Origin: Deltaproteobacteria bacterium
Lineage (GTDB): Bacteria > Bdellovibrionota > FAC87 > UBA2466
Assembly: GCA_043776735.1 (NCBI GenBank)
Contig: JAYVQZ010000008.1
Location: 1 to 40,634 of the forward strand
Direction of reading: 5' to 3'
Length of the DNA: 40,634 nucleotides
A program made the translations under genes and the position numbers. How positions within the stretch are numbered: the stretch's first letter is position 1; the number at the start of each line of letters is the position of its first letter. The notes below the pieces were generated by a model, which was not told where the DNA came from, searched no databases, and worked only from the letters and a program-made list of their open reading frames with translations. Below, in pieces: positions 4,725-26,293 of the stretch.

Positions 4725-4777
4725 TACAGGTGCTTGGGTCAGGCCTGCCTGGTCTTATTGTTGCAAGAAATCATAGA

Positions 4778-11864: not shown

Positions 11865-12114
11865 ACAAATCATTTACCTCGGGAGTGTGGTTATTTTCGG
11901 CAGCTTTGGGGTGCCTAGAATCAGTGCAGCTGTTAATAAATTTTGACAGGGGCATGGCTGTGCACAGGCAGAATACACCTCTAAATATTCGTAATTGCAT
12001 GGTTTAATCAAATATCGGAAATGGGGGTTTGGCACCGACTTTGCAGACTACCTAAGTATTAATTTCATCGACACACAACCTTTAGTCAGCCTCTCCGGCA
12101 CCCCAGAACCCCGA

Positions 12115-12813
12115 TTGAAACCGCATTTTACTTTGCGGGCATTGAGCGTTGGTTTTTGGCTCACCTTAATCGTGGCGGTTGTCGGCTGTGGATCCAAACA
12201 CAATACCTGGCCAGCCCATGTGGCCTCAATTTCCGGATTTTCCGATGCCGAACGCCTGCAAATAATGGCCGCGGTGAACCAGATGAACGACGCCGCGGAT
12301 CAGCCTCTTCTTATTCTAGACAACTCAGCTCCCGCAAACGCCTATACGATTACCATCCAAAAGCATGAGGCATGGACCGATTCCAAAGTGGGCCTCTCCC
12401 ACCGAAGTGAAGAAAATTGCGCGATTGAAATCTCTAGCGAGCTTTTTGAATCCCATTTAGCAGGCTTTTTAGATACGACAGTGCGCCACGAATTTGGGCA
12501 TTGCACTGGTCTGGGTCACAGTTCAGAAAAAGGGGCCTTGATGTTTGCCACCTCGGTAGCCTTCGATGCCTACAGCGATTCTGCCCTAGACGAATTTTTC
12601 GCCGATATGCAAAAATCCGTGGCTCCCGCATACCGCGGCGAAGGAAATGCTCCGGCAACAACCACCGCCACCTCTGATCTCCAAAAAACGACCGATACCA
12701 CCACCACTCCGCCATCCGATAAGCCTCCCGTGTCCCCCTCTCCCCAAGGGGACGGTTCCCATGACCACCGCTCCCACGGCCGCGGCTCCCACGAGCATCA
12801 TCATCACCATTAA
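12115..12813 (+). CDS. Metzincin-type zinc metalloprotease lipoprotein with a Thr/Pro linker and a His-rich C-terminal tail
   Basis: HEFGHCTGLGH matches HExxHxxGxxH, with a downstream ALMF as a possible Met-turn. The in-frame TTG at 12115 gives KPHFTLRALSVGFWLTLIVAVVGC, a lipobox-type signal. The ORF track starts at ATG 11995. The tail is HDHRSHGRGSHEHHHHH. Confidence 0.7.
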   Translation: MKPHFTLRALSVGFWLTLIVAVVGCGSKHNTWPAHVASISGFSDAERLQIMAAVNQMNDAADQPLLILDNSAPANAYTITIQKHEAWTDSKVGLSHRSEENCAIEISSELFESHLAGFLDTTVRHEFGHCTGLGHSSEKGALMFATSVAFDAYSDSALDEFFADMQKSVAPAYRGEGNAPATTTATSDLQKTTDTTTTPPSDKPPVSPSPQGDGSHDHRSHGRGSHEHHHHH

Positions 12814-12968: not shown

Positions 12969-13877
12969 ATGAGTGATTCCCTGGTCTCCAATACAATAAA
13001 TCCGCTCAAACAGGCCCTAGCGCTAAAACCGATATTCCCCGGGGGAATTCGGCGGGTTTGCTACCCCACGGCAACGATCGATCTTAAAGGCGAAGTGGCC
13101 CGTCACCTCACTACGCGCGGGGTGACCGATCAACCGCTGCCTTTAGAGACCCTTCAGCTACGAGTTAGCGCAGAAAATCAAATTCCTAAGGACGGCCCCC
13201 TTAGTCCCATTTCCTTGCAGCTTGAATTTACCGAACCCGGCGTCCAAAAGGCTTACCGCAAACTCGTGGGTTACTTAGCCCAAGAGGTTCTCGGATTTGA
13301 CGTCGTTTTTGAACGCAGCCCTTTTCTTCGCTTTCACTTTCCCGCCCGCCTGCCCGACAAATACCGCTCGACCGGGGGGGTAATCCTGGCTCATCATAGC
13401 GATACCTTATTGGGAGACTACTTTGAGCAGATCAACTGCTGGCTCCCCTTAAGCACCTGCGCGGGAACCCGCTCCTTGCAAATAGCCTCCTTCGACGACA
13501 GCATCGGCATTCTCACCGAGTTTGGCCGAGGTCTCGACTTCGATCTTTCCCGCTTCGCCCAGGCCAGACAGCCCTTTTATGATCGGCTTTATTCCGACGA
13601 TGCTTTTCAACAACGGGTTCTGCAAGCTTGCCACCCCTTGGAGACCCAATACGGAGAGGTTGTCCTCTTTGACCCTCGTACCATCCACGCCACGGCCGAA
13701 AACTTAGACACCCAAACCCGGGTGAGCATCGACTTTCGTTTGATCCCTCTCACCGCCTACAATGAGATCATGGAACGGTTTCGTAGCGAAGGAAAAACAC
13801 CGGTGGAGTTTGAAGGGCAGTCGCTGGCACGCGGAGGGTACTTCGATGTGAAGACCGCCTTTGAGGCCCTGGAGTGA
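12969..13877 (+). CDS. Fe(II)/2-oxoglutarate-dependent oxygenase (PhyH-like fold)
   Basis: HHSD provides an HxD motif, with a distal His in DPRTIHATAEN and an Arg in TRVSIDFR. This spacing fits the 2OG-oxygenase facial triad plus the 2OG-binding Arg. Confidence 0.55.
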   Translation: MSDSLVSNTINPLKQALALKPIFPGGIRRVCYPTATIDLKGEVARHLTTRGVTDQPLPLETLQLRVSAENQIPKDGPLSPISLQLEFTEPGVQKAYRKLVGYLAQEVLGFDVVFERSPFLRFHFPARLPDKYRSTGGVILAHHSDTLLGDYFEQINCWLPLSTCAGTRSLQIASFDDSIGILTEFGRGLDFDLSRFAQARQPFYDRLYSDDAFQQRVLQACHPLETQYGEVVLFDPRTIHATAENLDTQTRVSIDFRLIPLTAYNEIMERFRSEGKTPVEFEGQSLARGGYFDVKTAFEALE

Positions 13878-16800
13878 ATCTTTCCCGGTTTCTCAGTAAC
13901 CTTTTTGTCTCCTGGATAAGGCCCCTTCTTACGGCAGGATCCCAACGAAAGCTGACCCTTGCGGATTTTCCCGTTGAGCTTGGCAAAGAGTCCGTCAATC
14001 GCTGCGCTGACGAATTGGTCCGCGCGCTGGAGGCGACGCCAAACGACCCTCTTTCTAAAACGCTTGGGAAAGTCTACCGGGGAATCCTCAGTGGGGCACT
14101 GTTACTAGGGTTGCTTCATGCGGTAACAAGCCTTGCGCTTCCCTTTTTACTTCAAGCGTTCCTCAATGACCTGAGCACTTCGGTAGCCCCACTTTCCCAA
14201 AAAATCTTGCTAGCCCTCTCCCTTTTTTCCATGAGCCTTCTCTCCTGGTTGCTCATCCAGCACTGCTTTTTTGTGGGCGGTAGACTGGCCCTTCGCGTTC
14301 GAGCAGGCCTTGTCAATGCCATCTATAAAAAGCTATTGGGAAGCTCACCGGCAAACGACGATTCCTCCTCTGCCTACTTCAACTTGATCGCACGAGATGC
14401 CCTTAAGGTGGGCTCAGCCGGACAGATGTTGGTACTCACCGTGATGTCGCTCGTGCTTATCGTTGGCGGTGTGCTTCTGCTCTATCAAATTGTAGGAGTT
14501 TCTAGCCTTGCTGGGTTTTTGGTCTTAGTCCTATTGGCCCCTCTCTACCGGAAGCAGGCGCGGGCGATGGAGGCTACGACCGGCGATCTGTTTCATATCT
14601 CCGATCGTCGAGTGGGGTTTCTCTCCGTCGTCTTTCAAGGGATTCGGGCAATTAAATTGGCCGGCGTTGAATCCATCCTTGGAGATCAGGCCCGAAAGAT
14701 CCGAGCCCAAGAGTTAGTAAAACTAAACCGTATTGCCATTCAAACCGCGTTCTTAAACCTTCTGTTTCAAAGCAGCCCCATCGCGGTGGCTTTAGTCACT
14801 TTCACTACGGCAGCCTTGTTGGGTCGGCAGCTTGGACTGCCGGAGGTTTTGTCCGCCCTTGCCACGTTTGCCATCCTGCGAGCCCCTCTGCTGCACCTTC
14901 CCAATCTCATCGTCGCTCTTTTAGAAGGACGAGTTTCTCTTAATCGAATTGAGTTGGCTCTGCGCGGACAAGAGCGGCTTCCTGTGACGGCTGGGACAGC
15001 GCCCCTGGGATCGGTTTCTTTAAAAGCCGCGACATTTAGTTGGAAAACTCAAGGCAAAGCGGTCCTTTCTGAAATCTCGTTAGAGATTACGCCTGGCGAG
15101 TTGGTGGCTGTTTTAGGGCCGGCCGGCAGTGGCAAAAGTTCCCTGCTCCATGCCCTCCTTGGTGAAATGGGCGTTCAAGAGGGAGAGGCCGCCCTATCGG
15201 GCGAAGTCTCCTACTCCTCCCAACAGCCGTGGATGGTCAATTCGACAGTAAAAGAGAATATCGTTTTTGGAGCGGAGTGGAATTCTGCCCGCTACAGCGA
15301 GGTAATCTCAGTCACAGGCCTTGAGCGCGACTTGGCTCAGTGGGCTTCGGGCGACGCTACGGAAGCTGGGGAAAACGGCCTGGCCCTTTCCGGAGGTCAA
15401 CGCCAGCGCATTGCCTTAGCCAGAGCCCTTTATCGAAACGCCGATCTCTGCCTCCTCGATGATCCGTTTAGCTCCCTCGATAACCGGACGGCCACCCACT
15501 GTTTTGAAAAGGGAGTGCTGGGATTTCTTAAAGGGGCCACACGAATCCTGGTCACCCACCGGCATGATTTTGCCCAGCAGGCCGACGTGGTTTTGTGGAT
15601 TAAAAATGGCCGTATCGTTCGCAGCCTAAGAGGTCAGCAGATTAAAAAGCTTCACGAAATTCCTGCAGAAGTTGCCCCTGAGCCAACTCGGGCGTTAGAG
15701 CGGGCGCCTGCCAGAGGCATGATCACGGCAGAAGCCGATGCGGAGGGCTCGGTCCCCTTGGATCGTTACCGCCAGTACGGCGCAATGCTCGGAAGTTCTT
15801 TAGTCTTAGCCTTAATCCTTGGGATCTTTTTGCTACGGGAAGTTTTTAACGTGGGGGCCGATACCTGGATCTCCTATACGACGGCACGTGCTGGGATCAC
15901 GCCCACAATCATTTTAAGTGGGTTTGCACTCTTGGGCCTGCTGACCTCGGTGGCCACTTACGTGCGATCGCGCATGGTCATGGCAAAAACGGTAGTCGCT
16001 GCAGGGACCCTTCACGAGGGCATGCTCAGCGGGGTTTTAAATTCACCATTCTCTTTTTTTGAGGCCAATCCCTTAGGCCGGCTGCTCAATCGTTTTGGAA
16101 AAGACCAGGCAGCAATCGATCTCGAGGTCGGCACAAAAACCCTAGAGTGCCTCAATGTGATCTTTCTCTTAGGCTCAAGCCTTATCCTAATCGTGGTGGC
16201 CACGCCCGTGGCTGTGTTGGTGATGTTTCCTCTGGGGGTGGTCTATTACCGTTTGCAACTCTTTTTTAGAGCCACATCACGCCAGATAAATCGAATGGAA
16301 GCGCTTTCCCAATCCCCGCTTTTCGCCCACGTTTCAGAAACTCAAGGAGGACTGACGACGATTCGGGCGATGAGGCAGCAGGATCGGTTTCGGCAGGGAT
16401 TGAGCGAGCGGCTTGAGATCAACCAACGAATTCTAATCGCCCGCTTGGCCGCCGATCGTTGGCTCAGCATTCACCTAGACTCTTTGGGGGCGCTTTTGGT
16501 GGGCATCACCGCCGTATTAGCTGCCTGCTTTAGCGATGCCATTGGTTGGGAGCTAGCGGGACTCTCTGTCACCCATGCGCTTGCCGTGACGGTGACTTTT
16601 GCCAGAGCAGTCCACACCTTTGCCGAACTCGAATGTGGCATGAACTCCGTAGAGCGGGTGCAAGAGTATGCAGGACTGCCGGGGGAAGGGTTCAAGGGAA
16701 ATGGCCAGCCCGCCTCTCCTCCAGTTCAGTGGCCTGACGCAGGAAGAGTGGAAATTAAAGACTTGGAACTGCGGTACCGCCCCGATCTCGAGCCCTCGTT

Positions 16801-17449
16801 GAAAGACATTTCCTTCACCATCGGCGCAGGTGAAAAACTCGGCGTGATTGGTCGCACCGGCTCGGGCAAGAGCAGTTTGTTATTGGCCATTTTCCGGCTG
16901 GTGGAACCCACCGGCGGTAACGTTTTTATCGATGGCATCGACGTAAAAACTTTGCCTTTGGCGGTGCTTAGATCCCGTCTAGCCATTCTGCCGCAGGAGC
17001 CCGTTCTGTTTCCGGGTCCTCTGCGCAGTAGTCTAGATCTCAAAAATGAGTATTCCGATAGCGAGATTTGGAAGGCCCTTAATGCGGTTCAAATGAAAGA
17101 GGCGGTAGAGTCATTGCCCGGCGGCCTGAGTTTGGAACTTCAGCCCGATCTGTTTAGCCTGGGGCAGCGACAACTACTCTGTCTGGCTAGGGTCATTCTA
17201 CGAAAGCCCAAAATTCTTTTTCTTGATGAGGCCACCGCTAATCTCGACCCCACCGCCGATAAACTGGTGCAGGATGCCGTGGAGCGCGAGTTTGCTCACT
17301 CTACCGTCATTACCATTGCCCATCGCCTACAGACCCTCTCACGCGCCCATCGGATCGTAGTCATGCAGGATGGCCGAGTGGCTGAAATCGGGACGCCTAC
17401 TGAGCTCTCTCAAAAATATCCTGAGTTGCAACGGGGAGGTGCGGCATGA
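13874..17449 (+). CDS. Full-length (TMD-NBD-TMD-NBD) ABC transporter of the ABCC/MRP type
   Basis: N-terminus FLSNLFVSWIRPLLTAGSQRKLTLADF. NBD1: GPAGSGKSS, LSGGQRQRIALARALY and LCLLDDPFSSLD, with Asp in place of the catalytic Glu. NBD2: GRTGSGKSS, FSLGQRQLLCLARVILRKPKILFLDEATANLD. The start overlaps the upstream stop by 4 nt. Confidence 0.9.
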   Translation: MNLSRFLSNLFVSWIRPLLTAGSQRKLTLADFPVELGKESVNRCADELVRALEATPNDPLSKTLGKVYRGILSGALLLGLLHAVTSLALPFLLQAFLNDLSTSVAPLSQKILLALSLFSMSLLSWLLIQHCFFVGGRLALRVRAGLVNAIYKKLLGSSPANDDSSSAYFNLIARDALKVGSAGQMLVLTVMSLVLIVGGVLLLYQIVGVSSLAGFLVLVLLAPLYRKQARAMEATTGDLFHISDRRVGFLSVVFQGIRAIKLAGVESILGDQARKIRAQELVKLNRIAIQTAFLNLLFQSSPIAVALVTFTTAALLGRQLGLPEVLSALATFAILRAPLLHLPNLIVALLEGRVSLNRIELALRGQERLPVTAGTAPLGSVSLKAATFSWKTQGKAVLSEISLEITPGELVAVLGPAGSGKSSLLHALLGEMGVQEGEAALSGEVSYSSQQPWMVNSTVKENIVFGAEWNSARYSEVISVTGLERDLAQWASGDATEAGENGLALSGGQRQRIALARALYRNADLCLLDDPFSSLDNRTATHCFEKGVLGFLKGATRILVTHRHDFAQQADVVLWIKNGRIVRSLRGQQIKKLHEIPAEVAPEPTRALERAPARGMITAEADAEGSVPLDRYRQYGAMLGSSLVLALILGIFLLREVFNVGADTWISYTTARAGITPTIILSGFALLGLLTSVATYVRSRMVMAKTVVAAGTLHEGMLSGVLNSPFSFFEANPLGRLLNRFGKDQAAIDLEVGTKTLECLNVIFLLGSSLILIVVATPVAVLVMFPLGVVYYRLQLFFRATSRQINRMEALSQSPLFAHVSETQGGLTTIRAMRQQDRFRQGLSERLEINQRILIARLAADRWLSIHLDSLGALLVGITAVLAACFSDAIGWELAGLSVTHALAVTVTFARAVHTFAELECGMNSVERVQEYAGLPGEGFKGNGQPASPPVQWPDAGRVEIKDLELRYRPDLEPSLKDISFTIGAGEKLGVIGRTGSGKSSLLLAIFRLVEPTGGNVFIDGIDVKTLPLAVLRSRLAILPQEPVLFPGPLRSSLDLKNEYSDSEIWKALNAVQMKEAVESLPGGLSLELQPDLFSLGQRQLLCLARVILRKPKILFLDEATANLDPTADKLVQDAVEREFAHSTVITIAHRLQTLSRAHRIVVMQDGRVAEIGTPTELSQKYPELQRGGAA

Positions 17450-18435
17450 GCGCGACTCTCCTAGAATCCCCCCTCGCTTGCGAGGCCTTTGGACAACTTT
17501 TTCGAAAGCTTTACGGGGTGTCCGGGTCCATTCTGCCCTTGGGGCAGTTGCTTCACTGGCGCAACCGTCTGGGGATAGCCACCCCTGAACTAGATGCTAT
17601 TCCCACTTTTGTCTTTGGCGGATACTTTTATGGCTTTTCCTCCCCAGTGCCCGAGCAGGCCGAGCTAAGCGAAGTGTCCCGTTTGGTGCTTGGCAAAACC
17701 GCAGGCCAAATTTTGGTTCCCTGCGTACGCGAAGGGGTGAACGTAGACGCCTTAGTCGCAGAGGGTTTTCAAAAACTACCCTGGTTTGTGGAGTCTGTTT
17801 TTGAGATCGATAAGGGCGTAGAAGCTGATTTGGCCTCTCGAGTCTCTCGAAATCAAAGGCGCGATATCCTACGTTTAACTCGTCGTTCGGAAGAGCAGTT
17901 TGAACTTCAACTTTTCGAAGGAGAGGCCCTACGCCAAAACCCCTGGGTATTTGCCAAGGCGGCAGAACTCCACGCCCACAATCTGACCAAGTACAGCCAC
18001 GCCCTTAACTTCTATAGCCAAGAGATCCTCACTCTTCTCCTCCATTCGGGGTTAGCCGAACACCTGCTGATTGCGTTGCGAAAAGACAAGAATGGAGAAT
18101 TTGTCCAGGCCTCTGTTAATTTTATCGATCGCCCACGTAAACAGCTCTTTCTCATGGTGCAGGGGATCAACCGCGATCTCGTTCCCCCAGGACAAAACCT
18201 CTACCTAGCTGAGACCTATCAGCTTTATCAGTTTGCTCAAAAGCAGGGGATCCAAGAGGTCTACTTGGGGCGGGGAGGCCAAGAGGCCAAACAGCGAATG
18301 GGCGCCAATCGTTTTCATCTTTTGAATTTATGGATTAAAAGTCAAGGGCAGGCAGCTAGCGAATTTGCCGCCATTGTCGAAAAATCTCAGTCGGTGCTGG
18401 CAACGCTTCCGCCAGACCTAAGGAGCCAAGAATGA
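17446..18435 (+). CDS. GNAT-fold transferase (FemAB / BioF2-like, Acetyltransf_6-type)
   Basis: The pattern SRNQRRDILRLTRRSEEQF...FIDRPRKQLFLMVQGINRD...YLGRGGQEAKQRMGA resembles the Acetyltransf_6/FemAB-like family. It has 4-nt overlaps with both neighbours. Confidence 0.45.
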   Translation: MSATLLESPLACEAFGQLFRKLYGVSGSILPLGQLLHWRNRLGIATPELDAIPTFVFGGYFYGFSSPVPEQAELSEVSRLVLGKTAGQILVPCVREGVNVDALVAEGFQKLPWFVESVFEIDKGVEADLASRVSRNQRRDILRLTRRSEEQFELQLFEGEALRQNPWVFAKAAELHAHNLTKYSHALNFYSQEILTLLLHSGLAEHLLIALRKDKNGEFVQASVNFIDRPRKQLFLMVQGINRDLVPPGQNLYLAETYQLYQFAQKQGIQEVYLGRGGQEAKQRMGANRFHLLNLWIKSQGQAASEFAAIVEKSQSVLATLPPDLRSQE

Positions 18436-18770
18436 GCCTTCCGCATATTTTGATGATCGGTGCCTACGATGACTACATGGGAGCCTTTGGATCTCTGGGC
18501 ATTCGCCTCACGCTCTTTCAGAAAGAGGATTCCCTCACCCCTTTGCAAACGGCCACAGCAGAGAAGGTTTTCACCCTTAATTATGAAAATGTTGAGGAGT
18601 GCCTTCGGTTTGCCATCGCCCGCCATGAAACGGCGCCGTTCGATGGCGTAGTTTCTTTTACAGAGTATGGCCTTGAGGCGGCAGCCCGGATTCAAAACGT
18701 ACTGCGCGTTCGGGAAAACCCATGGCTCCGGTTAAAGCCACTCGCGATAAAACGGAAATGCGACGGCTGA
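18432..18770 (+). CDS. Pre-ATP-grasp N-terminal domain, probably the 5' part of a frameshifted ATP-grasp ligase gene
   Basis: ILMIGAYDD...VVSFTEYGLEAAARIQNVLRVRENP looks like the Rossmann-like N-domain of an ATP-grasp enzyme. Meaningful similarity ends at about 18720, where the frame of 18722-19633 takes over. Confidence 0.5.
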   Translation: MSLPHILMIGAYDDYMGAFGSLGIRLTLFQKEDSLTPLQTATAEKVFTLNYENVEECLRFAIARHETAPFDGVVSFTEYGLEAAARIQNVLRVRENPWLRLKPLAIKRKCDG

Positions 18771-19633
18771 TTTCTCACCTCGACGTGGGAAGGGCCGAGT
18801 TTATGCTCTGTTCTCATTTTGAAGACCTCGCGGCGTTCTGGCACAAGTTGAATGGACCGCTTATTCTAAAGCCCGCCAAAGGATCGGGAAGCGAAGGGGT
18901 GTCACTCATCCGGCGAACGGAAGAGCTTGCTAAGGCCTGGGTTCGCAGCACAGCGCCTAAGGTAATGCCGCTTATTGCCGAGGAGTATTTCGACGGGCCG
19001 GAGTTTAGCGTTGAGTCGCTCACCGTGGACGGCACGCATGAGATTCTTGCGGTCACTCAAAAAATCACCACGGGAGAATTAGGCTTTGTTGAGACCGGAC
19101 ATCAAATGCCGGCGCCGATATCAAAAGCCGTCTTCCAACAAATGGCCACTTCGGTTACGCAGTTTTTACAAGCCGTTGGGCATGCCGTTGGTCCGGCACA
19201 CACCGAGCTTCGCCTTACTGCAAAAGGACCCCGAATTATTGAAAGCAATACCCGACCAGGCGGCGATTTTATTTGGCAGATGGTTGAACTGGTCTGCGGG
19301 GTGGATCTCGTAGCGGCCACACTCGCGGATTTAGCTCACGTCCCCCAGCCAAAGAGAAAGCCCGTGGCCCCGGCGGCAGCGGTTCGGTTTTTTGCCTACG
19401 CCAATGGGCGAGTCACCCATTTAGACCAAACAGAAAAAGCCGCAGAGCTTCCCGGCATCGTTCGTTTTCATTGCAGCCTCGCCGTCGGCGCAGAGCTGGG
19501 CCCGCTGAGATCCTCAGACGATCGCCAAGGATTCGTGGTGGCGATCGGGGAAAGTCTGGCTCAGGCTATGGAGCGGGCTGACAATGCTATCGCCGCGGTC
19601 CGCCTCGAGCTTGCTCCCCAGACAGCCCAGTAA
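18722..19633 (+). CDS. ATP-grasp ligase core (L-amino-acid-ligase-like)
   Basis: ATRDKTEMRRLI, LILKPAKGSGSEGV, IAEEYFDGPEFSVE, HTELRLTAKGPRIIESNTRPGGDFIWQMVELVCGVDL. Confidence 0.75.
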   Translation: MAPVKATRDKTEMRRLISHLDVGRAEFMLCSHFEDLAAFWHKLNGPLILKPAKGSGSEGVSLIRRTEELAKAWVRSTAPKVMPLIAEEYFDGPEFSVESLTVDGTHEILAVTQKITTGELGFVETGHQMPAPISKAVFQQMATSVTQFLQAVGHAVGPAHTELRLTAKGPRIIESNTRPGGDFIWQMVELVCGVDLVAATLADLAHVPQPKRKPVAPAAAVRFFAYANGRVTHLDQTEKAAELPGIVRFHCSLAVGAELGPLRSSDDRQGFVVAIGESLAQAMERADNAIAAVRLELAPQTAQ

Positions 19634-20662
19634 GCGATTATTGCAGGCTTTAGTGCCCACCGAAATGCGCAGGGAATTGGGCAGGGCAAATGAGCTATCA
19701 GCCACAAGAATTCCACCCTCCAAAAGAGCGTTGTAGGCCTTGCGCCCATTTTCAAACTGAACCAATAAAAAATTGGAGTCGCTAGGCAATACGCGAATCA
19801 CTCCTGGCAATTGCTCTAGGCCAAGCGACAATCGATTGCGCTCTTTTACCAGGCACTCCACCTGTTCTTTCATCATGGAGGCGTTGGACAGCTTCACCGC
19901 CACGGCATGTTGTGCCGCCTGATGAAACGCAAAGAGGGGCTGCAACCGCTGGACGGTATCGATCACCTTCGCGTTAGCTAGCAGGACACCAGCGCGTAGG
20001 CCGGCTAGCCCCCAGGCCTTGGAGAAGGTTCTTACCACCACAAGGTTAGCGTACTGGCGAAGCAACGATAGGCTTGAGGCCTTCTGAGAAAATTCGATAT
20101 AGGCTTCGTCAACGACGACTAGGCCGGGCGCTTTGGCGAGCAGCGTTTCTACTTGAGAGATCGAGATCGAAGTCCCCATCGGGTTGTTGGGAATGCACAA
20201 GAAGATGAGTTTTGCCCCAGTAGCCACAAGATCATCGGTACTGGTGATATCAAACTCTGTTCCCTGCAAAGGCACTTCACGAACCTCTACCCCGTGCGAT
20301 CTTGCGCAGTGGGCGTAGAAGGGAAATGTGGGGCTTGCAATAGCAATGCTGTCTTTTCCCGGCTCGCAGAAGGCTCGGATCATTAACTCCAAGGCGGCAA
20401 TGGAACCCGGAGTAAAAAGCACCTCCTGGGGACCCGCCAAGTTTAAGTAACAGGCCAGTTGCTCTTGCAGCCTCACGGGAGCCGGATTGGGGTACTCGCT
20501 ATAAACGCCACCATACGGATTGGTATTGGAGTCGAGCCGAATCAGATCTTTCTTATAAAGCGCGGCCCTACGAATTGGATCGAGTATGGGGAGAGTTTTT
20601 ACACATTCCCGAGCCAGAGGGTGAAGGGTTTCTCCTGCAGGAGGTTGAAGCACAACGCTCAT
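19514..20662 (-). CDS. HisC-like class II PLP-dependent aminotransferase
   Basis: LDSNTNPYG. The PLP-lysine motif is VVRTFSKAWGLAGLRAG. SLRISVGT. I prefer the ATG at 20662 (MSVVLQPP), which overlaps the upstream stop by 4 nt. The 3' end overlaps the convergent ATP-grasp gene by 120 nt. Confidence 0.8.
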   Translation of the reverse strand: MSVVLQPPAGETLHPLARECVKTLPILDPIRRAALYKKDLIRLDSNTNPYGGVYSEYPNPAPVRLQEQLACYLNLAGPQEVLFTPGSIAALELMIRAFCEPGKDSIAIASPTFPFYAHCARSHGVEVREVPLQGTEFDITSTDDLVATGAKLIFLCIPNNPMGTSISISQVETLLAKAPGLVVVDEAYIEFSQKASSLSLLRQYANLVVVRTFSKAWGLAGLRAGVLLANAKVIDTVQRLQPLFAFHQAAQHAVAVKLSNASMMKEQVECLVKERNRLSLGLEQLPGVIRVLPSDSNFLLVQFENGRKAYNALLEGGILVADSSFALPNSLRISVGTKACNNRLLGCLGSKLEADRGDSIVSPLHSLSQTFPDRHHESLAIV

Positions 20663-21744
20663 AAATAGTTTCCTTTCGTCTGATCTGAGGTGACCGCAAT
20701 TTCGGCCATTCGGGCGCAAAGCGTATTCATCATATCCCAGCCCTGTTTTTGGACCGTCTCAAGCCGCGTCAGGGAATGGGGATCTAGGTTTGTCAGTAGT
20801 GAGATTCCCATGGTCTCGTGAATCTGATCTCCGTCGTGATGAGTGGCAAAATGGTCGGTCTCTCTGAATTTCGACATGATGGGATGGGCAACGATGTGAA
20901 AAACCGTAGCCGCTGCCTCCAGTACCAAGTGCACTAGGACCAGCTTTTCGGCATTGTCGAGAGTGAGCATTTTCCAGGCAAACCAGCTGGAGGTGGCCTC
21001 TAAAATGGGGTCCCAAACCTTCAACAGGCCCTCGCCCCGATCGCTTGCGAGATTTTCGTTATGCCCAAACTCCTCTTTGAGGTGGTCTTGAAAAATGCCA
21101 GAGTATCTAGGGTCCTCGCAAAAGGCGGAACGGGCAAGCACGGCCCGCTGAAAGAAGTTGGACCACACCTGAATGGTATCAAGCAAGCGGCCTCGCTGAA
21201 TGGGATCATTGACTGCATCCCCAGTAACAAAATTGAAGATGAGATTGTTTTTGTAGGCTTCTCGGTAGATCCGGTTTTTTTCCAGAAGTACAGCCAGCGG
21301 ATCTTTGGCCACTTCAAAGCTCACCCGCGCTTTGTTGCTGTTTTCGTAAAGGCCGTGTCCTTCAAATTGAATGGAAAGGGCCCAGAAGCCTTCTGGCCCT
21401 CCGGTAAATCCATGGTAGGTGTCGCTGTCGACCAGAACTAGGTCGCCTTCTTTAAAAGTAAACTCCGCAGCGCCGTTGGCTTTCCCTGTTCCCTTGGCCA
21501 CGACAATAAAACTCTTTGTGGGATGAATGTGAGTGGCTAAGGATTGGCCATTTTCTAAATGAACCCAGGCCAAAGAAAGGCGCGCAGACTCCGGAATAAA
21601 GGCTGCCACCAGAGGGTGCTTGCGAAAGTCTTTTAGTTGGCCAAGCGAGTGTTCCACGCCGTCCTGAACCACGGAGCGGAGCGTGGGGAGCTCCTCTCGC
21701 GTGATCAGGCGCATCTCACCCTTGGGTAGTGGTGCTAATTTCAT
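20659..21744 (-). CDS. Fusion of an N-terminal cupin and a C-terminal heme-oxygenase-like diiron oxidase/oxygenase (HDO) domain
   Basis: Cupin: GQSLATHIHPTKSFIVVAKGTG and GDLVLVDSDTYHGF, a 3-His type. HDO-like: FQDHLKEEFGH, LVLEAAATVFHIVAH, and ATHHDGDQIHE, which contains H-x3-D-x2-H. Confidence 0.6.
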   Translation of the reverse strand: MKLAPLPKGEMRLITREELPTLRSVVQDGVEHSLGQLKDFRKHPLVAAFIPESARLSLAWVHLENGQSLATHIHPTKSFIVVAKGTGKANGAAEFTFKEGDLVLVDSDTYHGFTGGPEGFWALSIQFEGHGLYENSNKARVSFEVAKDPLAVLLEKNRIYREAYKNNLIFNFVTGDAVNDPIQRGRLLDTIQVWSNFFQRAVLARSAFCEDPRYSGIFQDHLKEEFGHNENLASDRGEGLLKVWDPILEATSSWFAWKMLTLDNAEKLVLVHLVLEAAATVFHIVAHPIMSKFRETDHFATHHDGDQIHETMGISLLTNLDPHSLTRLETVQKQGWDMMNTLCARMAEIAVTSDQTKGNYL

Positions 21745-22406
21745 AAATTTCCTTTTCCATTTCGTTCAATTGACCAATGAATTTCAGAAACCCGCGCCAC
21801 CAGGCAGTCGTCTAGACCCACCTGGTGGCAATAACTTTGCACTTCGTTCACCGTCAGCGCGGCCCTTAGGGATTGGGCAAAAAGCTGACGTTGGTAGCTG
21901 CTGTTTCCTACGGTGTACTTGTCTACGAGAGATTGCCACTCGCTCTCGGAATCTGGCCGCACCAGATCCTTGATCAAAATTGCCGCCCTGGTTTGGGCAA
22001 GACGGGCCAGTTGAATGAAGAACGAGATCGTGTCCGGGATGTGGTGGACGATGCTGTTGGAAAGGATCAGATCGTAGTCCTTTCGGCAGAGAATCCGACT
22101 CTTGACGTTTTCATAGACGAGAGTGATCTGACGCCCTAAACCCGCGGCGGTGACTTTTTTAGTCGCCAACGCAAGCATCTGACTAGAAAGATCTACCGCC
22201 GTAATCTGTAGTCCCGGTATCTTAGTGGCTAACCGGAGAGGAATGTCTGCAGTGCCCGTTCCTAAGTCGATGGCTGAGTTGGCAACTGGCGCCAATGCTA
22301 CGGCTCTCAGGGCAAACTGTTCATTGACCGCACTATTGTCGATGCTGTCGTATTCGATGGCGTCCTCTGCGGTATCCATGACTTCGGGCTCTAGAACTCG
22401 AATCAC
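21741..22406 (-). CDS. Class I SAM-dependent methyltransferase
   Basis: Motif I is AIDLGTGTADIPLRL. Post-I is ITAVDLS. LILSNSIVHH. It has 4-nt overlaps with both neighbours. Confidence 0.8.
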   Translation of the reverse strand: MIRVLEPEVMDTAEDAIEYDSIDNSAVNEQFALRAVALAPVANSAIDLGTGTADIPLRLATKIPGLQITAVDLSSQMLALATKKVTAAGLGRQITLVYENVKSRILCRKDYDLILSNSIVHHIPDTISFFIQLARLAQTRAAILIKDLVRPDSESEWQSLVDKYTVGNSSYQRQLFAQSLRAALTVNEVQSYCHQVGLDDCLVARVSEIHWSIERNGKGNL

Positions 22407-23272
22407 TGTTGTCTCCCCTGGTGTTGAAGCTCCACTAAGTCGGTAATCGCCTGGTCCACTTGTTCCAGATTGTTTACGACAAAGAGCTGTTCTTGATGAC
22501 GAGAGATATGAAAACTCTGTTTGAGCACTTCGCTTAGAGAAAATGGCTTAATCACCGTGTTGCCAGCGATCAAAGACGCCCCTTCTCTAGGGGAGGAGAG
22601 CAGGCCTGCCCCCCAAATGCGGTAGTCTTCTACGGTACCCACCAACCCAAACTCCACCGTCCAAAAATAGAGCCGTTCTAAAAGAGTCTGTTCGCTAGGG
22701 CTCCTCTCCAAAGACGCCACAGCCCCGGCTACCCGTTGTTCGGCCTGGGCTTTGTCGACTGGAGAACTCTTTTCCTGGGCATTGAGTTGGGAGAGCGCGA
22801 CATTAGCGTCATAGAGGGCCACGTCCTCGGCGGTGGACCTGGTTTGTAAGCCCAGTTCCGCAAAGCGTTTAATCAAAGAGCGGTACTCGTTGCTAAACAT
22901 CAAAGGAAGGTGGCCTATCAGATCGTGAATGCGATCGGGAACGGGCGAGTGACAAACATCTTTGGCAGCACGGACATTGTGGGCCAGAGGAAATATCTGC
23001 TGGCTCTGCATTGAATGATAGTTCCCATAGGGGACGTACCCTTCTACAAACTTAGCGCTCCAGCCAAACGATTGGAGTCGCTCTTCAACATGATTTCTGT
23101 CAGGCAATCGGTTCGGGTCAAATTCACATTGTTCCATGCCTGCCAGATAGCGAGGATCTAGCTGATGAGAAACTTGAGAAACAAAAGAGGAATGAGCTCT
23201 TTTAAATTGGGACCAAACAAGGTCACACTCTGAAGCAAAGGCTATATTTGAAATTTCGAACATTTCGGCCAC
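22403..23272 (-). CDS. phhA: Pterin-dependent aromatic amino acid hydroxylase (phenylalanine-4-hydroxylase family)
   Basis: PDRIHDLIGHLPLMFSNEYRSLIKRFAELG contains H-x4-H. LYFWTVEFGLV supplies the Glu ligand. The start may be the ATG at 23263, with GGAG 8 nt upstream. Confidence 0.85.
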   Translation of the reverse strand: MAEMFEISNIAFASECDLVWSQFKRAHSSFVSQVSHQLDPRYLAGMEQCEFDPNRLPDRNHVEERLQSFGWSAKFVEGYVPYGNYHSMQSQQIFPLAHNVRAAKDVCHSPVPDRIHDLIGHLPLMFSNEYRSLIKRFAELGLQTRSTAEDVALYDANVALSQLNAQEKSSPVDKAQAEQRVAGAVASLERSPSEQTLLERLYFWTVEFGLVGTVEDYRIWGAGLLSSPREGASLIAGNTVIKPFSLSEVLKQSFHISRHQEQLFVVNNLEQVDQAITDLVELQHQGRQQ

Positions 23273-23377
23273 TCCCCACTTCCCCTAACTACTGCCTTAG
23301 CAAGAAGTATGCTCAGGCAAAAAAAATGTTTTTGCCGACCGGGATCGGAAAAAATGGCCCCAGTGGTAGCAAGAAAC

Positions 23378-24382
23378 TCAGGCACGTTGAGCCACAATGA
23401 CACTGAACCCCGAAGGCAGTTCCAGCACCTGGGTTAGGCAAAGGCCGGTCTCCTTAAATAAGTTTCTGTATTCGGATTCGGTTCGCTCCCTGCCGCCTGT
23501 CATTACGAGCATCGTCATATCGACGAGCTTGCTCCAGTGAGGACCTGGTGAAACGGGGATAATCCGCTCGACAACTAGTACTTTCCCGTGGGGAGGAAGG
23601 GCCTCCGCACATCGAGTAAGAATAGCGCGGGCCTGTTGATCATCGCAGACGTGGATCACGCTCTTCATTAGATAGAGGTCGAACCATTTGGGAATGGAAA
23701 CCGTGGCGTCGCCTTCAATGACATTGATACGATCTTCAAGGCGATGGCTTGCTATCACCGCTCTTGCTCCTTTAACGGAGACGGGCAGATCGAAGAGTGT
23801 TGCTTGAAGTTCAGGGTTCTTTTCCAAAAGCTTACAGAGAAAAATCCCGTGCCCGCCGCCCACATCCATAAGGGTAGTTGCCTCGGAAAGATCAAAGGCC
23901 TCAGCCATCTCTTGTGCGGTGGTCAAGGTGATCTCTTCCCAACCGTTATGGAACCTAGAACCCGTCTCCGGATGGTCGGCAAAGTATTCAAAGAGAGGCT
24001 TTCCAAATACGTGGTCAAAGGCGGGCCTCCCTGTCTGAAGGCTATAAAGGAGATCTCCCCACGCCTGGTAGGTCTCTCCTCCGGAAAACATAGAAACCTC
24101 TTGCACCAGAGTTTGGGGATGGTCGCTGCGAAGATACTGGCCACCTTCCGATAGCCGATATAGGCCTGAAGTCTCTTGTTCGACGGCACCGAAGGAGGCC
24201 AGAAATGTGAGTAACCGTCTAAGAGCGCCAAGGTCCAATTTCAAAATGTGCGCTAAGTCTTCAGCAGAATGACCTTCGTGGGCAAGCTGGTCTGCCAGAC
24301 CCACTCTTACCGTGGCAAAGAGCGCGCAAGAATAGTAGTAGCCGTGAGCCAGCTCCCGAAGTTGCTGTCTAGAGTTCGCCAT
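23378..24382 (-). CDS. Class I O-methyltransferase (Methyltransf_2, ASMT/COMT-like, with an N-terminal dimerisation/winged-helix domain)
   Basis: The SAM motif is LMDVGGGHGIFL. DLPVSV. IEGDATVSIP. YLMKSVIHVCDD. KVLVVERI. Confidence 0.8.
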   Translation of the reverse strand: MANSRQQLRELAHGYYYSCALFATVRVGLADQLAHEGHSAEDLAHILKLDLGALRRLLTFLASFGAVEQETSGLYRLSEGGQYLRSDHPQTLVQEVSMFSGGETYQAWGDLLYSLQTGRPAFDHVFGKPLFEYFADHPETGSRFHNGWEEITLTTAQEMAEAFDLSEATTLMDVGGGHGIFLCKLLEKNPELQATLFDLPVSVKGARAVIASHRLEDRINVIEGDATVSIPKWFDLYLMKSVIHVCDDQQARAILTRCAEALPPHGKVLVVERIIPVSPGPHWSKLVDMTMLVMTGGRERTESEYRNLFKETGLCLTQVLELPSGFSVIVAQRA

Positions 24383-24509
24383 TTATATCACTCCAAAAAA
24401 AAGAGTAGCCATCTGGGAAGCGCTTTAGCATTTTACGTGCCGCGCCACATCAAGGCATGGCGACCAGACGCCGGGCATAAGGGCTCGCAAAGGCGCAAAG
24501 GTATCGCAA

Positions 24510-24629
24510 AGGTATGGCGTCACTTTGCGAAATCTCGCAGGCAGGCATACGAAAGATCGCAGGGAAATTGGGTCAGATTGGACAGAGAAGTTTGTGGGGG
24601 GGGGGGCTTCGCAAAGTGACGCCATACCT
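24510..24629. repeat. 22-bp perfect inverted repeat enclosing a 76-nt spacer that contains an 11-G homopolymer
   Basis: AGGTATGGCGTCACTTTGCGAA at 24510-24531 is the exact reverse complement of 24608-24629. The G11 run is at 24596-24606. The spacer carries the direct repeats CGAAATCTCGCAGG and CGAAAGATCGCAGG. Confidence 0.85.
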
Positions 24630-24676
24630 ATGGGGAAACTAGGCTTCCGCAATGGGGGAGGATTTGGTCCAAAGGG

Positions 24677-25189
24677 CTATTTGGTTGTTAAGGTCTCGTC
24701 GTAGACGTCAGGATTTATCGGGGGGATTTGATAGCTGATCTTTTTTATTTCGTTGGGGCGTTCGGGAATAATAGCCAAGTAGGTCTCTTTTTCATTGGTC
24801 GGAACCCACAAGTAGTTTTCTGAAAGTTTGTATCGCTGTAGCGGGTTGCTGGCGCCTAAATACCGACCAGGGAGTACGGTGCCCTTATAGATCAGCTCAA
24901 GGGGCTTTGGTAATGGCCCGTGAAACGTAGAGAGCGAGTAAACCCAGGCTTTAGCCCCGCGATGATAAATGCCGTAGACCCGGCTTGGTAAAAAAGTTCC
25001 GTTGGTCTTGCTTAAATTTCCTTGGCCCTGACTGAGTTCCAAAAGCATTGGGGCCGGTGCCTCACTATCGGGGGTGAGCTGAAAGGGTGCCGAGAGACGG
25101 TTTTTTATAAACGAAGGCGTCTCGTCGGCAAAAACTGGGGTTAGAAAAAGGCTCGCCAGCAATGGGAATGCAATCGAGAAAAATTTCAC
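24677..25189 (-). CDS. Secreted hypothetical protein (tandem paralogue A)
   Basis: Signal peptide FSIAFPLLASLFLTPVFA. It shares TVLPGRYLGASNPLQRYKLSENYLWVPT with the neighbouring gene. Confidence 0.6.
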   Translation of the reverse strand: MKFFSIAFPLLASLFLTPVFADETPSFIKNRLSAPFQLTPDSEAPAPMLLELSQGQGNLSKTNGTFLPSRVYGIYHRGAKAWVYSLSTFHGPLPKPLELIYKGTVLPGRYLGASNPLQRYKLSENYLWVPTNEKETYLAIIPERPNEIKKISYQIPPINPDVYDETLTTK

Positions 25190-25734
25190 TTTGTCCCCTT
25201 GGGATTGGATGCCGTTTTTGGCATCGGGTCAAAGTCCACGTACTTTGCCAGTGGTGGCGTGCTGTCCACCCAGAATTCATAATGCTCTTTTTTAAACGTG
25301 GGCGTCCACAGCCGGTCTCGACCGAGAAAATAATTTTGAAAGGGGTTTTTAGCACCCAAGAAGGACCCGGGCAAAACGGTGGCCGCTCGCAAATATTCCA
25401 TGGGGTTCGTCTTGAGCTTTCCGTAACTATCGGTGACCACCTGATACCAACGATTCTCACGAGGTAAAAAGTAAAGGTAAACGCGGTTGGCGCGGAGTGA
25501 GCTTAAATTTATCGGTAGAGCATTTTTTCGCTGTTCGTAAATTTCTCGCTGCCGGTCGGCTTCCATCAAAAGTAGGATGGGTTTTTCTTCATACCGCTGC
25601 AACCGCTTGGGAACGTAATCGGGTTTTACCAATGGAGAGATGGGAGTCGGCGAAGGAGATTGAGTGGGAAGGATCGCCAGCGCAGAAAGGCTGACACTCC
25701 CGATAATCCCCAGGATTTTTTGCTTCATTTTCAT
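25186..25734 (-). CDS. Secreted hypothetical protein (tandem paralogue B)
   Basis: Signal peptide ILGIIGSVSLSALAIL. It carries TVLPGSFLGAKNPFQNYFLGRDRLWTPT. It overlaps paralogue A by 4 nt. Confidence 0.6.
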   Translation of the reverse strand: MKMKQKILGIIGSVSLSALAILPTQSPSPTPISPLVKPDYVPKRLQRYEEKPILLLMEADRQREIYEQRKNALPINLSSLRANRVYLYFLPRENRWYQVVTDSYGKLKTNPMEYLRAATVLPGSFLGAKNPFQNYFLGRDRLWTPTFKKEHYEFWVDSTPPLAKYVDFDPMPKTASNPKGTK

Positions 25735-25789
25735 CCAGTTTTATTGGAGCACCACCCGGGTGCCCTTTGCCCTACTTGGGCCCGGTGCA

Positions 25790-26293
25790 TCACCCTGGCT
25801 GCTGTTTACTAGGCTTTCCCAGCTCCGTGCCATCGTTCAAAAGAATTGAGGGCACCGCGCCCGTGGCCAAATTGGCTAGGTCGGATTTAAGAAGTGGACT
25901 TCCGTCCGCTTTCTGCGGATTATTTTTGGGGTTTCCATTCGGAAGGGTTAGCTGAGAAACAACATTGGTGCCGTTATCGACGTTGGTCTGCATTAGGCCG
26001 TCTTTGCCGCCTGCACTTACGCCGAATTTAAATTCTTGGGAAGTAACGGGCGTCGGCGGCACGTCTATCCCTTTTCCCCCAACATCAACTTTTTTGGGGT
26101 TTAAATTTAGCGGATCGCTTTTTCCGACCCGAACTACCGGTGTTTTATCCCCTTCGGCATTGTCATTAACGAGGTCTCCGGGATCTACAAATTTAATTTC
26201 CGGATCTTTGATTACGCTTTGGTGGGCTGGTTTTTGTTTATCAGCGGCCGAAGTCAATGAGCTCACCAGCAAAAGGATAATTAGTCGTGTCAT
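25790..26293 (-). CDS. Secreted hypothetical protein
   Basis: Signal peptide LIILLLVSSLTSAA. The mature part is rich in Gly, Pro, Asn and Lys. No recognisable domain. Confidence 0.5.
   Translation of the reverse strand: MTRLIILLLVSSLTSAADKQKPAHQSVIKDPEIKFVDPGDLVNDNAEGDKTPVVRVGKSDPLNLNPKKVDVGGKGIDVPPTPVTSQEFKFGVSAGGKDGLMQTNVDNGTNVVSQLTLPNGNPKNNPQKADGSPLLKSDLANLATGAVPSILLNDGTELGKPSKQQPG

Follow-up and report, generated by a model that had tools for sequence, protein, structure and literature searches.

A co-conserved gene cluster around a cupin-HDO fusion enzyme in a bacterium of the Bdellovibrionota that probably makes a small exported peptide without a non-ribosomal peptide synthetase or polyketide synthase

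In the beta-ethynylserine (bes) cluster, a haem-oxygenase-like diiron oxidase (HDO), BesC, is accompanied by the Fe/2-oxoglutarate (2OG) enzymes BesD and BesE, the pyridoxal phosphate (PLP) enzyme BesB and the ATP-grasp enzyme BesA. The mangotoxin (mbo) cluster combines a stand-alone HDO, MboA, with a reductase (MboB), two L-amino-acid ligases (MboC, MboD) and a deiminase (PMC13185094), and clusters that join an HDO to an L-amino-acid ligase are an established route to peptide antimetabolites, with at least 25 types of HDO and ATP-grasp cluster counted so far (PMC13185094). The HDOs are a young superfamily of which about a dozen have been characterised, and nearly all of these gave unprecedented diiron chemistry (nitrile, alkyne, azetidine, N-nitrosourea; HDO reviews). 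SznF, the streptozotocin N-nitrosourea synthase, is the sole characterised HDO that bears a cupin domain (HDO review, March 2026). Here we describe a locus at positions 12969 to 24382 of a 40,634-nucleotide stretch of DNA (henceforth referred to as the window; contig JAYVQZ010000008.1 of assembly GCA_043776735.1) from a Deltaproteobacteria bacterium of the Bdellovibrionota, which encodes as its signature enzyme a protein with an N-terminal cupin domain and a C-terminal HDO domain (henceforth cupin-HDO). An initial annotation, made from the sequence without database searches, had taken this locus for a biosynthetic cluster, not yet characterised, whose product would be a modified aromatic amino acid or resemble a dipeptide. 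We find that its nine genes are a genuine co-conserved biosynthetic cluster and consider, with a probability of about 0.6, that the cluster makes a small exported peptide around an oxidatively tailored aromatic amino acid, independently of any non-ribosomal peptide synthetase (NRPS) or polyketide synthase (PKS).

An open reading frame (ORF) map and direct reading of the gene junctions place the genes in two convergent operons, one on the plus strand (12969-19633) and one on the minus strand (24382-19514; Table 1), with nine genes in total where the initial annotation had spoken of a ten-gene neighbourhood. All six of the 4-nt start/stop overlaps that it had claimed can be read in the sequence (GTGA at 13874 and ATGA at 17446 and 18432 in the plus operon; GTGA at 22403-22406 and ATGA at 21741-21744 and 20659-20662 in the minus operon), and a purine-rich Shine-Dalgarno-like stretch lies upstream of each downstream start. 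The 105-nt gap between the O-methyltransferase and pterin hydroxylase genes is also as it had described, and all ORFs of the cluster are intact except that of the ligase. The 3' ends of the two operons overlap by 120 nt (19514-19633), where the convergent ligase and aminotransferase genes meet; the last ~34 residues of the aminotransferase extend past its HisC-like domain, and a terminator scan found no terminator-like site between the operons at 19514-19633. The transcripts of the two operons would be antisense to each other over this overlap. Promoter and terminator scans inside the cluster gave nothing above shuffled expectation, and neither Rfam families nor tRNA genes turned up when the window was scanned for them.

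The locus was compared, by tblastn with the window proteins and all-against-all clustering of neighbouring ORFs, with more than 80 loci drawn from exact-protein look-ups, one GTDB species-representative scan and two metagenome contigs (individual loci are given L numbers). In Sorangium sp. So ce381 (CP150336.1, region 7,660,410-7,681,474) all nine families occur within ~13 kb. A Coxiellaceae metagenome-assembled genome (L011) carries on one strand, colinearly, the hydroxylase, cupin-HDO, aminotransferase, 221-aa-type methyltransferase, 2OG oxygenase, ABCC transporter, Fem-like protein and ligase, and Kofleriaceae (L009) and the metagenome contig L089 carry subsets of the window-type genes. Sorangium, Coxiellaceae and Kofleriaceae have homologs of the 221-aa methyltransferase (39-44% identity) alongside the pterin hydroxylase; L089 carries a methyltransferase of similar size (218 aa). 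The cyanobacteria Aphanothece, Roholtiella and Nostoc and the contig L088 have a cupin-HDO, an aminotransferase, a VioC-like flavin adenine dinucleotide (FAD) hydroxylase and an O-methyltransferase; the three cyanobacteria have in addition a halogenase-like gene (PF04820, Trp_halogenase family), the Fem-like gene is present in all of these loci but the truncated one of Roholtiella, and ATP-grasp, ligase, 2OG or ABCC genes are present in some. In seven Pseudomonas species, among them P. orientalis DSM 17489 (NZ_JYLM01000002.1, region 539,779-560,816), the set is reduced to a common operon of six genes (ligase, cupin-HDO, fused ABC transporter, Fem-like, 2OG and a class IV, BCAT-like aminotransferase), while Rhodococcus and Mycobacterium have the core without the 2OG gene plus a TDO-like haem protein, an O-methyltransferase and a second ATP-grasp-like gene; by tblastn, one Streptomyces locus also has a related gene set. 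Where a cupin-HDO ORF was called, which is the case at 71 loci, its commonest partner is the Fem-like gene (28 loci), followed by the class IV aminotransferase (24), the ligase (23), the fused ABC transporter (22), the PF00891 methyltransferase (22), the 2OG oxygenase (12) and the HisC-like aminotransferase (10). The linked fused ABC genes encode ~1120-1250 aa, and for those of Pseudomonas and Rhodococcus the identity is only 21-24%. The recurrence of these genes in Sorangium, Coxiellaceae, cyanobacteria, Kofleriaceae, Pseudomonas and Rhodococcus means that their adjacency is not random, which was the weak point to which the initial annotation had exposed its claim.

Average-linkage clustering of the cupin-HDO sequences reproduces the gene-context classes exactly, which argues for functional coupling. 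The window protein groups with those of Coxiellaceae and cyanobacteria, and those of Pseudomonas, Rhodococcus and Mycobacterium form another group. A separate Nocardia group has a context of Fem-like, class IV aminotransferase, styrene-monooxygenase-like and BBE oxidase genes, and an alphaproteobacterial group occurs with an AMP-ligase-like gene. A further clade, from Photorhabdus (L028, L033, L039), Chromobacterium (L024, L032) and Stellaceae (L014, L021, L027), lies beside conserved genes for the alpha and small subunits of a Rieske oxygenase, a family III CoA-transferase, an MFS transporter and a TauD-type oxygenase, a context suggestive of catabolism or of another pathway. The cupin-HDO gene adjoins that of the HisC-like aminotransferase in ten loci (L008, L009, L010, L011, L012, L043, L068, L072, L088 and L089), and the coordinates checked, those of L088, L089 and the window, show a 4-nt overlap between them. 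In the complete genome of Sorangium sp. So ce381 (L003, 11062-12204), the aminotransferase beside the cupin-HDO is called at 285 aa with its start 280 nt downstream; on a second contig (L004) a gene starts in the usual 4-nt overlap, and the complete genome may carry a frameshift or a miscalled start.

The GC content of the cluster is 0.532, compared with 0.485 in the left flank and 0.505 in the right; together with the patchy spread across phyla, this offset suggests horizontal transfer, and it fits a mobile accessory locus. The genes that flank the cluster in the window (an SBP_bac_5 gene, a YcaO-like fragment, an M10-like lipoprotein gene and small ORFs at 24677-26293) have no counterpart by tblastn in any related locus and are rejected as members, so that the boundaries first drawn for the cluster stand.

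By its predicted fold and its conserved ligands, the 361-aa cupin-HDO is assigned to the HDO superfamily. In the AF2 model (pLDDT 91) residues 149-351 are helical, and Foldseek pairs this domain with CtCADD (8va9; TMt 0.76, 213 columns), as well as with 3dde and 1rcw. In an alignment of 23 homologs H221, E225, H228, E276, H302 and D306 never vary, and H309 is kept in at least 90%; the ligand spacing, E-x2-H ... E ... H-x3-D-x2-H, is the canonical 3-His/3-carboxylate metal-ligand set of the HDOs (HDO review). The N-terminal domain scores 30.0 bits with Cupin_2 (cut-off 27.2); in the same alignment its 3-His site comprises an invariant H74 and at least 90% conserved H72 and H111, and Ser or Thr replaces the usual Glu of cupin motif 1, in a register set by alignment with DddK. 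The HDO profile PF14518 gives E values of 2e-5 to 2e-4 with fused relatives, below its gathering score, and precomputed PF14518 matches are present in several homologs and stand-alone relatives. An exhaustive HMMER search across 1.84 billion representatives (50% identity clusters) yielded only 603 proteins with an E value of 1e-3 or less, of which 279 had one of 1e-30 or less, so the family is small and sharply delimited; its hosts are Pseudomonas, Rhodococcus, Mycobacterium, Nocardia, Photorhabdus, Legionella, cyanobacteria, myxobacteria and predatory or intracellular bacteria, and its database names are generic ('cupin domain-containing protein', 'hypothetical protein'). In full-text literature, from which subscription journals are largely absent, we found no publication on an HDO with an N-terminal cupin or on this gene combination.

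SznF and its homologs, for example in the chalkophomycin pathway, likewise hold an HDO and a mononuclear 3-His cupin in one chain, and SznF acts on a free amino acid, its two metal centres performing consecutive O2-dependent steps (HDO review). However, the domain order is reversed, since the cupin is C-terminal in SznF and N-terminal in all 23 aligned homologs of the window protein; unlike SznF, the cupin-HDO has no extra N-terminal domain, and its genomic context of aminotransferase, ligase, Fem-like and ABCC genes also differs. Searched against the PDB sequence set, the family profile found small cupins only, with SznF at E 4.5-5.0 over 30 residues around the H-x3-D-x2-H helix and no stretch passing alone, and no two-domain match to SznF was among the Foldseek top 50. 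The domain order and the lack of significant sequence similarity rule out membership of the SznF family, and the cupin-HDO is, as judged from these comparisons, SznF-like in architecture without being an SznF-family member. CtCADD, although the best structural match of the HDO domain, is a single-domain protein without significant sequence similarity to it, and the self-sacrificial role of CADD in folate synthesis does not fit the context in the window; UndA and AetD are also stand-alone single-domain HDOs with no significant sequence similarity to the cupin-HDO. AetD is reported to be an HDO that acts on halogenated tryptophan in cyanobacteria.

Other HDO arrangements were encountered among the relatives. 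A stand-alone HDO domain of ~215 aa directly follows a styrene/indole-monooxygenase-like flavoprotein in Rickettsiella, Wolbachia of Folsomia and Aquirickettsiella (L081, L083, L084, L087), and in some metagenome proteins (P0347, P0367) flavoprotein and HDO are fused (633-644 aa), which makes this another uncharacterised HDO partnership. Predatory bacteria, namely Halobacteriovorax marinus SJ (BMS_0808) and other Bdellovibrionota (L007, L048, L059, L066, L071, L073, L076, L080) have a ~500-aa form with two cupins before the HDO, whose genes have no conserved neighbours.

The remaining enzyme classes (Table 1) were assigned by Pfam and NCBIfam profile searches, motif alignments, PDB sequence comparison and AF2 models with Foldseek. 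All classes named in the initial annotation are supported by profile, motif or fold, some of them by fold or motif evidence only: PF00351 and PF13535 score above their cut-offs and PF00155 and PF00891 reach E 3e-53 and E 2e-46, whereas PF14518, PF13480 and PhyH stay below theirs for the window proteins. Its three oxygen-activating metalloenzymes amount, by family assignment, to four O2-activating metal sites (Fe/2OG, pterin-Fe, 3-His cupin and diiron), since the cupin-HDO adds one, and it was right that the cluster holds no NRPS or PKS.

Table 1. Genes of the cluster, in order of position in the window
Product class	Position	Strand	Details
Fe(II)/2-oxoglutarate oxygenase-like protein	12969..13877	+	302 aa; first gene of plus operon
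Fused ABC exporter, ABCC/MRP-like, TMD-NBD-TMD-NBD	13874..17449	+	1191 aa; two ABC_membrane and two ABC_tran stretches
Tandem-GNAT, Fem/MprF-like transferase	17446..18435	+	329 aa; fold evidence
L-amino-acid ligase (ATP-grasp)	18432..19633	+	Frameshifted here; 400 aa when intact
Class I/II PLP aminotransferase, HisC-like	19514..20662	-	382 aa from ATG at 20662; last gene of minus operon
Cupin-HDO signature enzyme	20659..21744	-	361 aa; N-terminal 3-His cupin ~10-130, C-terminal HDO ~149-351
Small class I SAM-dependent methyltransferase	21741..22406	-	221 aa; Methyltransf_25/31/12/11, E ~1e-11
Pterin-dependent aromatic amino acid hydroxylase	22403..23272	-	289 aa (286 aa in the gene call on L001)
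PF00891 small-molecule O-methyltransferase with Dimerisation domain	23378..24382	-	334 aa; first gene of minus operon; Methyltransf_2, E 2e-46

In the plus operon, the 2OG-like protein falls short of the profile thresholds (PhyH 18.3 bits against a cut-off of 22; TIGR04324 48.9 against 150, E 6e-13) and a PDB sequence search found no relative of it; in an alignment, a facial triad and a 2OG-binding Arg (H143-x-D145, H240 and R251-x-S253) are kept in at least 11 of 12 cluster-linked homologs. The best NCBIfam model of the fused ABC protein, a putative product exporter that would also serve self-protection, is TIGR00957 (MRP; E 1.8e-227, with a score of 758 that is below the equivalog cut-off of 1470). 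The Fem-like protein gave no Pfam, NCBIfam or PDB sequence match at standard thresholds (no hit at E<=0.01); PF13480 matches it at E 0.11 and is sub-threshold in six of 10 homologs, the best of which, at E 6e-4, is below the gathering score, and database names of the homologs are 'BioF2-like acetyltransferase' or 'CelD/BcsL'. Its AF2 model (pLDDT 88, pTM 0.87) has a tandem GNAT fold whose best Foldseek matches are FemX (1ne9, E 9e-10), the MprF aminoacyl-phosphatidylglycerol synthase domains (TM 0.54-0.57) and Sba18/Sbb17 (TM 0.50/0.57). These proteins share the tandem-GNAT fold at an identity of only 10-17%, without a FemAB (PF02388) Pfam match in the window protein, and Sba18/Sbb17 are aminoacyl-tRNA-dependent peptide synthases that form amide bonds in secondary metabolism; on the strength of the modelled fold, the Fem-like protein is a probable aminoacyl-tRNA-dependent amide-bond former. 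The ligase carries ATPgrasp_N (PF18130) on 18432-18770 and ATP-grasp_4 (PF13535) and LAL_C2 (PF18603) on 18722-19633, all above their cut-offs, and among solved structures it comes closest to the L-amino-acid ligases BL00235 (3vot, E 4.5e-23), 4wd3 and BacD.

In the minus operon, the pterin hydroxylase scores 84.6 bits with PF00351 (cut-off 22.7) and E 3e-60 with NF010657, its nearest structure is a phenylalanine-4-hydroxylase (7vgm, E 7e-39), and its 2-His-1-Glu iron motif can be read as HDLIGH (H-x4-H) and TVEFG. The nearest structures of the PF00891 protein are 6c5b (E 8e-60), DtpM, CalO6, CalO1 and MmcR, which we take to be phenol O-methyltransferases; given these nearest structures, a role as keto-acid C-methyltransferase of the MppJ/MrsA type is unlikely. 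The aminotransferase matches PF00155 at E 3e-53 and scores 274.1 bits with TIGR01141 (hisC), just below the equivalog cut-off of 276.55. Its gene overlaps that of the cupin-HDO by 4 nt only if translation begins at the ATG at 20662, the start also chosen in an independent gene call on L001. From its sequence it is best called HisC-like rather than HisC proper, and its context indicates a role in secondary metabolism.

The presence of two amide-bond formers and an exporter without an NRPS or PKS points to an NRPS-independent small peptide. Operon structure, enzyme families and co-conservation were computed here, and the order of events that we propose is read from the families and synteny. The pterin hydroxylase would hydroxylate the ring of an aromatic amino acid, and the PF00891 O-methyltransferase and/or the 221-aa methyltransferase would methylate the hydroxylated residue. 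The HisC-like aminotransferase and the cupin-HDO would work as a coupled pair on the aromatic skeleton in its amino/2-oxo-acid form, the diiron and 3-His cupin centres carrying out, by analogy with SznF, two consecutive O2-dependent steps on one substrate to give a non-proteinogenic 'warhead', to which the Fe/2OG oxygenase may add a further C-H oxidation. The ATP-dependent L-amino-acid ligase and the Fem-like enzyme, the latter probably using aminoacyl-tRNA, would then form one amide bond each to give a di- or tripeptide, which the ABCC-type transporter would export; it would also protect the producer. The product would be comparable with Trojan-horse peptide antimetabolites such as bacilysin, rhizocticin, tabtoxin and mangotoxin. 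The initial annotation had instead assigned the cupin-HDO to a separate second building block; because its gene is coupled, and in the clade of the window always adjacent, to that of the aminotransferase, we consider action on the same amino/keto-acid skeleton more likely.

The proposal that an aromatic amino acid is hydroxylated and O-methylated, on the other hand, is strengthened by the comparison. The ring hydroxylase has been replaced non-orthologously between lineages (a pterin enzyme, a VioC-like flavin (FAD) enzyme or a TDO-like haem protein) and most, though not all, relatives retain the PF00891 methyltransferase, which together support tailoring of an aromatic ring. Three of the replacements (the VioC-like protein, the TDO-like protein and the PF04820 halogenase-like gene) point to an indole, and the pterin hydroxylases of the clusters have F or L in the motif Y-[F/L]-W-T/S-V/I-E-F-G, at a position that we take to be Trp326 in human PAH and Phe in TPH. 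These features of the sequences weakly favour tryptophan as the substrate; Phe or Tyr would also be possible. A kynurenine-pathway role for the FAD monooxygenase was rejected, as the model it fits best is VioC, which hydroxylates the indole ring, and the matches listed include none to a kynurenine 3-monooxygenase model.

Known pathways offer parallels to this scheme. 4-Methoxytryptophan is made by a TDO homolog and an O-methyltransferase, and 5-methoxytryptophan by a Trp hydroxylase and a hydroxyindole O-methyltransferase (PMC6920865). Like these pairs (among them OhmK/OhmJ and Arg5/Arg4), in which a hydroxylase and an O-methyltransferase act on a free aromatic amino acid, the window has a pterin hydroxylase with an O-methyltransferase, and the Rhodococcus variants of the cluster have exactly the TDO-like and O-methyltransferase pair; unlike the cluster, the methoxytryptophan pairs feed NRPS assembly lines. 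The plan proposed for the cluster is NRPS-independent like that of mbo and bes, where amino acids or peptides are tailored by an HDO and the amides of a small antimetabolite peptide are formed by ATP-grasp ligases. However, mbo and bes lack the cupin fusion, the Fem-like enzyme, the aromatic hydroxylase, the methyltransferases and the fused ABCC exporter, their substrates are aliphatic or basic amino acids, and mbo needs a dedicated reductase (MboB), of which there is none in the cluster. The ligases of bacilysin (BacD), rhizocticin (RizA) and tabtoxin (TabS) belong to the same structural family as that of the window (ATPgrasp_N, ATP-grasp_4, LAL_C2), although these pathways make other warheads and none has a cupin-HDO or Fem-like enzyme.

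The family and the overlap at 18432 that the initial annotation gave for the ATP-grasp ligase gene hold, but in the window the gene is not one ORF: it is split by a frameshift near 18719 into 18432-18770 and 18722-19633. A Logan contig (L001, from the short-read run SRR22198270) is 99.98% identical to the window over 9,726 nt and encodes an intact ligase of 400 aa. Relative to L001, the window has a 1-nt deletion and one substitution in a G/T/C homopolymer tract at ~18716-18725, which reads GGGGTTTCCCC in L001 and GGGTTTTCCC in the window and is the sole tract where L001 differs. Given the intact gene in a nearly identical contig, the frameshift is either a homopolymer error of sequencing or assembly or a very recent inactivation that truncates the pathway in this strain.

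This frameshift is one of several points that weigh against a functional pathway to a tailored aromatic peptide. The hydroxylation and methylation, cupin-HDO and amide-bond steps are all deduced from families and synteny, all members of the cupin-HDO family being uncharacterised in product and activity. The window protein itself has no PF14518 match at E<=0.01, its HDO assignment coming from fold, ligand motif and matches of homologs. The similarity of the Fem-like protein to aminoacyl-tRNA-dependent enzymes is only TM ~0.5-0.57, and acetyl-CoA-dependent tandem GNATs (VipF and the clavulanate-pathway protein 2wpw) also match its model. In Pseudomonas the minimal clusters are devoid of aromatic hydroxylases and methyltransferases, and their aminotransferase is of the BCAT-like class IV type; the conserved core therefore need not act on an aromatic substrate, which makes the substrate call less certain. 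Finally, a pterin hydroxylase beside an aminotransferase also resembles Phe/Tyr catabolism.

This last resemblance leads to the view that the genes are a locus of the phhA/phhC type for catabolism or detoxification of aromatic amino acids, lying beside unrelated transport genes. A pterin hydroxylase and an aminotransferase are the classical pair of Phe degradation, the cupins include ring-cleaving dioxygenases, and the cupin-HDO clade of Photorhabdus and its allies keeps company with Rieske oxygenase, CoA-transferase, TauD and MFS genes. We nevertheless regard such a role as very improbable, because the cluster has no pterin-recycling, HPPD or fumarylacetoacetate-type gene, because two methyltransferases, a ligase, a Fem-like gene and an exporter (not an importer) are co-conserved across phyla, and because the hydroxylase is dispensable in many relatives that retain the ligase, Fem-like gene and exporter. 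The minus operon might alternatively be a cassette for a beta-methyl or otherwise C-methylated aromatic amino acid, in which the aminotransferase would produce the arylpyruvate, a methyltransferase would C-methylate this, the cupin would be an epimerase or isomerase, the aminotransferase would re-aminate and the HDO would serve a later oxidation. MarG/MarI/MarH and StnQ1/StnK3 provide such a route to beta-methyltryptophan, with an aminotransferase, a C-methyltransferase and a cupin; the genes for the aminotransferase, the cupin protein and the SAM (S-adenosylmethionine) methyltransferase are consecutive here with 4-nt overlaps, the PF00891 protein weakly matches the 2-ketoarginine C-methyltransferase model TIGR04543 (E 2e-8) and the aminotransferase weakly matches a beta-methylarginine aminotransferase model. 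Yet the PF00891 protein is much nearer 6c5b, DtpM and CalO6 (E 1e-55 to 1e-60), the Pseudomonas, Rhodococcus and cyanobacterial versions keep a cupin-HDO and an aminotransferase without the 221-aa methyltransferase, and the conserved 3-His site with its obligatory diiron fusion suggests redox chemistry and not epimerisation, all of which makes C-methylation an unlikely purpose of the operon.

We give least credence to chance adjacency or a decaying, non-functional remnant: the broken ligase gene and the collision of the operons, with their overlapping 3' ends and no terminator between them, would fit it, but not the six 4-nt overlaps and otherwise intact ORFs, the intact ligase in a 99.98% identical contig from an independent run or the strong cross-phylum co-conservation. 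It is also doubtful that the cluster is a member of an already characterised and named pathway that has escaped recognition. Its relatives are found in the well-studied genera Pseudomonas, Rhodococcus, Sorangium and Nostoc, and the Chang laboratory has catalogued at least 25 cluster types with an HDO and an ATP-grasp enzyme (PMC13185094). Against this, the search of full-text literature, with subscription journals largely outside it, returned no matching pathway, in agreement with the initial annotation, which had recognised none; SznF alone among characterised HDOs has a cupin, and the database names of the family are generic. The mbo and fuscazine clusters differ in composition: mangotoxin identity is rejected on the gene set, with its stand-alone MboA, reductase, two ligases and deiminase (PMC13185094), and the cupin of the fuscazine cluster (tRNA-deacylase paper) belongs to an unrelated hydrazine synthetase system. 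A Nature paper on 'Metal-coordination mining' concerns Fe/2OG halogenases and is irrelevant to the cluster. A peptide built around an oxidatively tailored aromatic amino acid thus remains our preferred reading.

Several other features of the window were observed. By its leucyl-tRNA synthetase (LeuRS), which is only 64-69% identical to its database matches, metagenome-assembled genomes labelled 'Deltaproteobacteria bacterium' among them, the host belongs to an uncultured lineage that resembles the deltaproteobacteria. Upstream of the cluster, at 9400-10878 (+), lies the ORF of the SBP_bac_5 solute-binding protein, whose stop is contiguous with the start of a 224-aa ORF (10879-11553, +) with a weak, sub-threshold YcaO match (E 3.6e-5) that may be a YcaO fragment or a divergent relative. 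It is followed at 11995-12813 (+) by a gene for a predicted lipoprotein-like matrixin (M10) metalloprotease with a Thr/Pro-rich linker and a His-rich C-terminal tail (…SHDHRSHGRGSHEHHHHH), which is not conserved beside related clusters. On the other side, 125-250 nt upstream of the O-methyltransferase start, is an inverted repeat (24507-24531 / 24608-24632; 25 nt, 96% complementary, 76-nt spacer). RNA folding of 24507-24632 gives -49.6 kcal/mol (z = -8.0), and its flanks carry repeated CCTTTGCGA-like motifs. The 21-nt arm recurs a third time at 6133-6153, immediately behind the ORF at 4730-6121 and with 2 mismatches; none of these arms or copies is expected by chance, and the inverted repeat could be a regulator-binding palindrome or a REP/MITE-like element. 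Further away, 38401-40044 (+) encodes a 547-aa Kelch-repeat beta-propeller protein with strong matches to eukaryote-type Kelch/attractin profiles, a kind of protein that is unusual in bacteria and typical of host-associated or predatory lineages.

Overall, peptide clusters that contain an HDO and are based on ligases are already known, and what is new here is the cupin-HDO architecture and its Fem-like partner. We tentatively propose, at somewhat less than even odds, that proteins with an N-terminal cupin and a C-terminal HDO domain are a distinct family whose two-metallocentre reaction on an amino or 2-oxo acid would lie outside the known HDO set, and that with the Fem-like enzyme, the ligase and the ABCC exporter they would define a widespread, unnamed class of peptides made independently of ribosome and NRPS. 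The family is a compact, uncharacterised subfamily tied to a conserved assembly-and-export module, and its hydroxylases, which are swapped between lineages, provide a testable genetic handle. The six-gene Pseudomonas and the Sorangium versions are present in cultured strains, and their direct expression could reveal the product and the reaction. The cluster is invisible to genome mining centred on NRPS and PKS, and its product is likely a peptide antimetabolite of the Trojan-horse type, a class with a record of antibiotics and herbicides.

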